Positions 58,222 to 58,601 of a stretch of DNA of 64,000 bases are shown here, piece by piece. Positions within the stretch are counted from its first letter, which is position 1. Each line of letters begins with the position of its first letter. The notes below the pieces were generated by a model. That model made no database searches, was not told where the DNA came from, and worked only from the letters and a program-made list of their open reading frames with translations. The position numbers and the translations under genes are program-made. Source of the DNA: Escherichia coli (GTDB lineage: Bacteria > Pseudomonadota > Gammaproteobacteria > Enterobacterales > Enterobacteriaceae); assembly GCF_016026235.1 (NCBI RefSeq), contig NZ_CP065613.1; one strand, written 5' to 3'.

Positions 58222-58601
58222 AACAACCTCTCTTATAATTATGGGTATTCTACGGAAACAATATACCGTGGTGAAGCTAATTTACTCGATTGCTGCGATG
58301 ACTACCTCCGGGGGACAAACCTTATGTAAATACTATGGTCCTGCGGTGATAATTTGTATGTGATACACAGCAACATTTCGAGATATTCATACGGCATCTA
58401 ATACTGATTTAATTCTGGTTAAAATACAGACAGATAACAAGATGAATATTCTTAATGTTTACGTTAAAAATGTTTAATATTATTTAATAGTTGTTAATTT
58501 GAATACTTCGATAATGTTATATTTCCTGATAATCATTTGCAGGCAAAATGTTTTCACCCTTAAATGAGTATTTATTCTCATAGATCGAAAAAGGATTCAT
58601 T

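Follow-up and report, generated by a model that had tools for sequence, protein, structure and literature searches.

The interval between ypfM and yffB occupies positions 58222-58601 of the window, by which we mean the whole 64,000-nucleotide stretch of Escherichia coli DNA analysed here, and is equivalent to 2590867-2591246 in K-12. The boundaries and the length of 380 bp given in an earlier note on this DNA are exact. To its left lie acrD (54950-58063, plus strand), a hairpin terminator serving both strands (58068-58103) and the minus-strand gene ypfM (58162-58221), which codes for 19 amino acids, and to its right lie yffB (58602-58958) and dapE (58962-60089), both on the plus strand. The flanking genes ypfM and yffB are divergently transcribed and, as ypfM is located on the minus strand, the spacer lies upstream of this gene as well. 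Contrary to the earlier note, the gap does not lie downstream of ypfM, which runs leftwards. The gap had also been described as the longest gene-free interval of the window apart from IS and REP sequences, whereas the cysK-ptsH gap (4407-4789), at 383 bp, is 3 bp longer; this latter intergenic region has a GC content of 42.8%, and near position 4433 it agrees with the CRP consensus at 14 of 22 positions.

The window is collinear with the K-12 MG1655 genome, with an identity of 98.5% over the 10 kb compared, and with that of E. coli strain GTEN_24 except for three insertions of 1.4-1.5 kb, which carry an IS4-family (7416-8841), an IS110-family (45132-46649) and an IS3-family (orfA/orfB; 47598-49029) transposase, respectively. 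The marked AT-richness previously ascribed to the spacer was borne out: its GC content is 31.3%, compared to 53.2% for the window, and is the lowest among all 380-bp stretches, a value as low being reached by only 0.055% of them, every one of which overlaps this locus. The 150-bp stretch with the lowest GC content of the window (22%) begins at 58375, inside the spacer, and the AT-rich run that the earlier note had quoted is found at 58474-58526. In about 65 species of Enterobacterales, the orthologous spacers are likewise low in GC (29-49%, compared to 48-61% for their flanks). The spacer differs from that of K-12 at 3 sites in 380 bp, while most of the flanking genes are 1-2.5% divergent; it is not hypervariable within E. 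coli. Single nucleotide polymorphisms in this spacer serve as source-tracking markers in one study.

For the comparative analysis, we used 80 loci encoding YffB relatives, with one genome per species. Both the gene order acrD–ypfM–yffB and the YpfM peptide have been retained at 65 of the 80 loci, and the orthologous spacers range from 202 to 1041 bp (mode about 387 bp), with a low GC content throughout. Alignments of 20 and later 32 representative orthologues are mostly saturated, and six conserved parts stand out from them: the Shine-Dalgarno sequence, leader, -10 and -35 elements of ypfM (58219-58276), a weaker element (58285-58309), the hexamer ACTATG (58332-58337), a 35-bp block whose conservation matches that of the proximal ypfM promoter core (58352-58386), the sequence TGTTATATT (58515-58523) and the yffB Shine-Dalgarno sequence AAAAGGATT (58589-58597). 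The conservation across Enterobacteriaceae that the earlier note had proposed to look for is thus present in the proximal ypfM promoter, in the putative yffB -10 element, and in the central 35-bp block together with the hexamer, which reads CATAGT on the minus strand.

Promoter, mRNA and terminator of ypfM

The ypfM coding sequence annotated in RefSeq specifies the peptide MIERELGNWKDFIEVMLRK, and mass spectrometry has revealed the YpfM protein in a single condition, low-Mn minimal medium. A promoter scan located the core of its proximal promoter, P1, at 58247-58275 on the minus strand, with a -35 element TTCACC (58275-58270), a 17-nt spacer and a -10 element TAGAAT (58252-58247); the same hexamers with the same spacing are printed for ypfM in Shimada (2014; PMC3946193), and the alignments show the core to be conserved across genera in the form TTCACA...TAGAAT. 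When the whole spacer was scanned with a simple sigma-70 model, P1 was the single site returned, compared to 2.4 sites expected. A ypfM start with a 19-nt leader has been mapped with 4 reads (Kim 2012), and the 51-nt string printed for it matches the window at 51 of 51 positions and ends at 58240, which sits 7 nt downstream of TAGAAT. The resulting 5' UTR (58222-58240, minus strand) contains the Shine-Dalgarno sequence AAGAGAGG and is near-invariant across genera. A comparison with mapped K-12 start sites, as had been suggested, therefore recovers the ypfM start at P1, but among the E. coli start sites of Kim (2012) none is listed for yffB. Upstream of P1, the moderately conserved element at 58285-58309 (minus strand) has the alignment consensus GGnGnnAGCAATCACAGCAAT and includes a half-site, TCGCA/TCACA, at 58298-58294; judging by the inferred geometry, a 16-bp CRP-like frame placed on this half-site would be centred at -61.5 from the P1 start. 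The divergent ypfM had been overlooked in the earlier note, and its mapped promoter, along with a second conserved module that is discussed below, takes up the left half of the spacer.

A terminator scan showed that the hairpin at 58068-58103 is a bidirectional intrinsic terminator common to acrD on the plus strand and ypfM on the minus strand. In Term-seq data (Adams 2021), a very strong minus-strand 3' end is found at this terminator, where it is labelled only as "antisense to acrD"; the printed 3'-end string maps to the window with its last base at 58071, which we assign as the 3' end of ypfM. The Salmonella RNA STnc250 was found as an Hfq-bound RNA, corresponds to the ypfM transcript, has been reclassed as a small mRNA and migrates at about 220 nt on Northern blots. 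The corresponding Rfam family (RF01409) matches the window at 58063-58182 on the minus strand with 37.1 bits, below the gathering threshold of 42 (E = 2.5e-5), and this match lies outside the spacer. Although the match is sub-threshold, the Salmonella and E. coli transcripts are alike in their small open reading frame, their terminator and their synteny, and from the synteny and the ypfM open reading frame it is clear that the minus-strand ypfM transcript of E. coli is the STnc250 counterpart. The "sRNA" STnc250 next to this locus is accordingly the ypfM mRNA, a small mRNA rather than a non-coding RNA. RNA polymerase starts ypfM at 58240 from TTCACC-17-TAGAAT, and the resulting mRNA, which is the Hfq-bound STnc250, ends at the terminator shared with acrD.

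The earlier note had also raised the possibility that the gap hosts a small RNA. An independent small regulatory RNA might be suspected here, given the length and AT-richness of the interval and the adjoining match to the Hfq-bound STnc250 family, but STnc250 is the ypfM mRNA and its match does not extend into the spacer. An Rfam search at E <= 10 over positions 57800-59000 returned STnc250 and terminator matches outside the spacer only, while the matches inside it were chance matches with E >= 5.9. No terminator-like site was found in a scan of 58222-58601, and the next 3' end listed in the Term-seq data after the acrD/ypfM terminator is at bamC, which leaves none in the spacer (Adams 2021). 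Single-sequence folds of the yffB leader and of a long ypfM leader gave z-scores of +0.96 to +1.24, weaker than those of shuffled sequences, RNAalifold predicted no pairs for 32 orthologues, and local hairpins are not conserved. With neither an Rfam family nor a terminator, a Term-seq 3' end, a structure or covariation in the gap, we regard a separate small RNA as very improbable. Variable stems that present CATAGT in a loop were also considered and rejected, since the structures did not agree with one another and had a mean local z-score of about -0.3.

Several other candidates were judged by eye. No sequence in the spacer fitted a sigma-32, sigma-E or sigma-54 promoter, none fitted a MntR, Zur, PhoB, PurR, GalR, PdhR or MarA box, and a 5-codon upstream open reading frame with an ATC start and a stop that is not universal was rejected. 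Two plus-strand open reading frames with TTG starts, 58136-58363 (75 aa) and 58150-58329 (59 aa), cross ypfM in antisense orientation and extend into the spacer; neither start sites nor conservation support them, and we treat them as chance open reading frames.

The probable yffB promoter, the dapE start and the AT-rich tract

On the other side of the spacer, conservation points to an extended -10 element, TGTTATATT (TGnTATATT; 58515-58523, plus strand), with no recognisable -35 element. Distinct orthologues that carry this sequence number 29 and belong to at least nine genera (Escherichia, Citrobacter, Enterobacter, Leclercia, Lelliottia, Silvania, Huaxiibacter, Intestinirhabdus and a Salmonella-like contig), where it is found 65-109 nt before the ATG, and the -35 region is not conserved. 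The Salmonella-type spacer was recovered from metagenomes with the exact 18-mer printed as the yffB Fur box (Troxell 2011), and the MarA motif published for Salmonella ypfM<>yffB is likewise present without change at this locus (L130). In Salmonella, a yffB::gfp fusion uses a start at -97, and the fusion covering -97 to +75 is repressed by SdsR (Fröhlich 2016). As TGTTATATT is located at -113 to -105 in L130, the published start follows it after a gap of 7 nt. By homology to Salmonella, the E. coli yffB start would lie near 58531, giving a predicted 5' UTR of about 71 nt (58531-58601, plus strand) that is unstructured and contains the Shine-Dalgarno sequence at 58589-58597.

This assignment differs from that in the SELEX catalogue. 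Shimada (2014; PMC3946193) lists this very spacer among the type-A (divergent) constitutive RpoD spacers, with promoters predicted in both directions, and the best-scoring prediction for yffB is TTCATA-16-TTTAAT. These hexamers correspond to 58386-58413 and are conserved only in Escherichia and Citrobacter. Unlike them, TGTTATATT at 58515-58523 is favoured by both conservation and the Salmonella start, and it is most likely the yffB promoter. We therefore envisage a weak yffB promoter that would work from an extended -10 element alone.

The Salmonella data further indicate that yffB is under modest control by Fur and by the small RNA SdsR: a Fur box is located at -35 to -18 and expression is derepressed 2.6-fold in a fur mutant (Troxell 2011). 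The best Fur-like match in the E. coli spacer (13/19 at 58522-58540, just after the -10 element) is not significant when compared to shuffled sequences (P = 0.28). In a crude duplex prediction, on which we put no weight, the first 31 nt of SdsR pair best at about +14 of the yffB coding region.

The spacer had been thought to hold the dapE/yffB promoter, and this probably holds for yffB, whose conserved extended -10 element aligns with the Salmonella start, but the strongest dapE start lies inside yffB. It has been mapped with 8 reads, the highest count, and a 270-nt leader (Kim 2012), and the printed string matches the window at 51 of 51 positions, which places the start at 58692 on the plus strand. 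Part of the yffB coding sequence must then double as the dapE promoter and as a 270-nt leader; most dapE transcription would come from this internal promoter and, as the main start lies inside yffB, dapE expression should not be read from the spacer. Work by Bouvier in 1992 is also reported to have placed the major dapE promoter in the upstream open reading frame, with only a minor one preceding it, and lysine reportedly regulates neither of them.

dapE is a diaminopimelate gene, and in some bacteria other genes of the lysine/diaminopimelate pathway are preceded by riboswitches, so that one might speculate that the yffB leader is a cis-regulatory RNA for dapE that senses lysine or another metabolite. 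We give this idea almost no credence. In addition to the reported lack of regulation by lysine, there is no Rfam match in the leader even at E <= 10, it is less structured than shuffled sequences (z-score +0.96), and its length varies between 65 and 109 nt across orthologues, with a sequence that is poorly conserved except for the Shine-Dalgarno sequence.

Between the central conserved block and the yffB promoter lies the most AT-rich tract of the spacer (58387-58514; 128 bp, 22.7% GC), whose sequence is poorly conserved but whose low-GC composition is conserved across genera. In genomic SELEX, the spacer was bound by the RpoD holoenzyme in vitro and was flagged for H-NS (Shimada 2014; PMC3946193). 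The tract is likely an H-NS binding region, based on this in vitro result for the whole spacer, and we propose that H-NS binds the DNA of 22-23% GC that separates the two promoter zones and that this DNA probably keeps the yffB promoter weak. The suggestion that the gap could contain sites for nucleoid proteins agrees with the SELEX binding in vitro. The best match to the high-affinity H-NS motif in the E. coli spacer (8/10) is at chance level (P = 0.64 compared to shuffled sequences). A search of the same spacer for the ArcA consensus likewise gave nothing better than shuffled sequences (P = 0.98). With its core of 22-31% GC and its SELEX binding by H-NS beside a weak promoter, the locus resembles H-NS-bound promoter regions of the core genome; unlike horizontally acquired AT-rich DNA, it is ancestral and syntenic across Enterobacteriaceae.

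Natural strains carry rearrangements at this position. In strain EC2341 (L184), an IS1 element is inserted within the tract (approximately 58392-58470), and in strain 81 (L185) an IS1A-bounded deletion has removed narQ-acrD-ypfM up to about 58392, which means that this isolate can do without ypfM and acrD. The tolerated IS1 insertion, the poor conservation of the tract in both sequence and length, and H-NS, Fur and ArcA consensus matches that are at chance for the composition would all agree with the extreme AT-richness having no function of its own, that is with relaxed drift of non-coding DNA to which H-NS binds incidentally. Such an origin is rather unlikely in our view: low GC content is maintained across genera whose spacers no longer align, it is far below that of other spacers in the window, such as the 43% of cysK-ptsH, and divergence within the species is low.

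Taken together, the spacer very probably serves the minus-strand gene ypfM and the plus-strand operon yffB-dapE-ypfN as a divergent promoter and regulatory region. It is ordinary and largely known; it drives ypfM leftwards and would, weakly, drive yffB-dapE rightwards.

A conserved module distal to P1

The remaining conserved parts are the central 35-bp block and CATAGT. The block (58352-58386) reads T.TTtCaaAATaTTGCtgTnngTCACATaAAattt on the minus strand, has a conservation of 0.81-0.84, equal to that of the P1 core, and contains an invariant TCACA (58363-58359) and TTGC (58373-58370). Of 69 Enterobacteriaceae spacers, 59 have the block and CATAGT (58337-58332) in near-invariant form. Wherever the block is present, the distance from its TGTGA to the ypfM ATG is 134-152 nt, whereas the distance from the block to yffB varies between 154 and 890 nt; as it is the distance to ypfM that is fixed, we assign the block to ypfM. 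A distance of 21 nt separates TCACA from CATAGT in 52 spacers and one of 20 nt in 7 others, the sequence in between otherwise varying freely. A logo and position counts for 52 distinct orthologues on the minus strand gave the consensus T.TTtCaaAATaTTGCtgTnngTCACATaAAattt – 8 unconserved nt – gGcnCATAgT – 5 nt – CA. TTGC, TCACA and, within the hexamer, A, T, A and T show little or no variation, C(-12) is present in 50 of the 52 orthologues, and the pyrimidine-A pair (CA) that follows 7 nt after CATAGT is conserved as well (C(-1) in 41 and A(+1) in 45 of 52).

Based on this conservation logo, the block and CATAGT have the anatomy of a second promoter (58325-58337, minus strand), with CATAGT as the predicted -10 element, a predicted start at the A at 58325 and no -35 element. 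A putative 16-bp activator site would be centred at -41.5 from this start, with an A/T-rich element upstream of it. Class II activator-dependent promoters, such as galP1 and FNR-dependent promoters, have a CRP or FNR site centred at -41.5. The distal module is similar to these in the position of the 16-bp frame relative to the predicted start, in having a conserved -10 but no -35 hexamer, in its perfect promoter-proximal half-site TGTGA/TCACA and in the A/T-rich stretch upstream. It differs from them in its distal half-site, where the invariant TTGC fits CRP and FNR poorly. We tentatively propose that the module is an undescribed activator-dependent distal promoter, or else an operator, that controls YpfM and has been kept across most genera of the Enterobacteriaceae. 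The regulator binding at -41.5 would read the invariant TTGC...TCACA and would be a factor of the CRP/FNR type or another one. A CRP/FNR-type activator is our leading guess as the half-site TGTGA is the consensus half-site of CRP. The left half of the activator site in E. coli, TTGC, agrees with 2 of 5 positions of a CRP half-site and with 4 of 5 of an FNR half-site, and the best match to the whole CRP consensus in the E. coli spacer (13/22) is no better than in shuffled sequences (P = 0.64). Nor does the detection of YpfM, which was confined to low-Mn minimal medium, obviously suggest CRP.

With a start at the distal promoter, the mRNA of ypfM would gain a leader of 85 nt. At the Salmonella-type locus, the predicted distal start corresponds to a ypfM mRNA of 225 nt and P1 to one of 144 nt, so that the distal promoter would explain the Northern signal of about 220 nt. 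One further published start is of relevance here, namely a second ypfM start with a 129-nt 5' UTR and 2 reads (Kim 2012), the only one that has been published for ypfM upstream of P1. Its string matches the window at 50 of 51 positions and ends at 58350 on the minus strand, 25 nt upstream of the predicted start at 58325. It does not fit the -41.5 geometry, which holds only for the start predicted from conservation.

Instead of belonging to a promoter, the central block might be the operator through which a regulator acts on P1, perhaps a DNA-looping repressor. The sequence ATTGCTG is present on opposite strands at about 58289-58296 and at 58375-58368, flanking the CATAGT region, and the related motif CAGCAAT recurs upstream of P1; TTGC and its surrounding bases are invariant even though they match no sigma-70 element. 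In Salmonella, the centre of a MarA ChIP peak is located about 56 bp from its called motif in ypfM<>yffB, and it falls on the central block, as would suit an operator, only if this offset points towards ypfM. The repeat is short, however, and was not reported by a repeat search of the E. coli sequence. Moreover, the invariant positions of CATAGT are those expected of a -10 element (A-11 and T-7), the conserved CA lies 7 nt downstream, the spacing between TCACA and CATAGT is fixed, and the Salmonella transcript of about 220 nt needs a start near the CATAGT region. We therefore consider an operator acting on P1 to be somewhat unlikely and prefer the distal promoter.

The distal module is not found at every ypfM locus. 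Seven loci keep ypfM but lack TCACA-N21-CATAGT, namely the Cedecea-like loci L012 and L029, which have a 202-bp spacer, the Atlantibacter-like loci L023 and L055, the Buttiauxella loci L035 and L050, and L078. As these lineages keep the gene without the module, it appears to be an add-on in the core genera of the Enterobacteriaceae and not something that accompanies ypfM universally.

For practical purposes, three points emerge from an otherwise normal divergent promoter region: where the yffB promoter should be placed, that the dapE start is located inside yffB, and that STnc250 is the ypfM mRNA. The distal ypfM module is the sole element for which we found no account in the accessible literature, and it would provide a new example of a well-known type of element. 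The 19-amino-acid YpfM is a genuine and conserved protein, and the distal module is the one lead that merits a small experiment. If our proposal is correct, ypfM would belong to a conserved regulon, and the site of its regulator would hint at when the cell needs YpfM.
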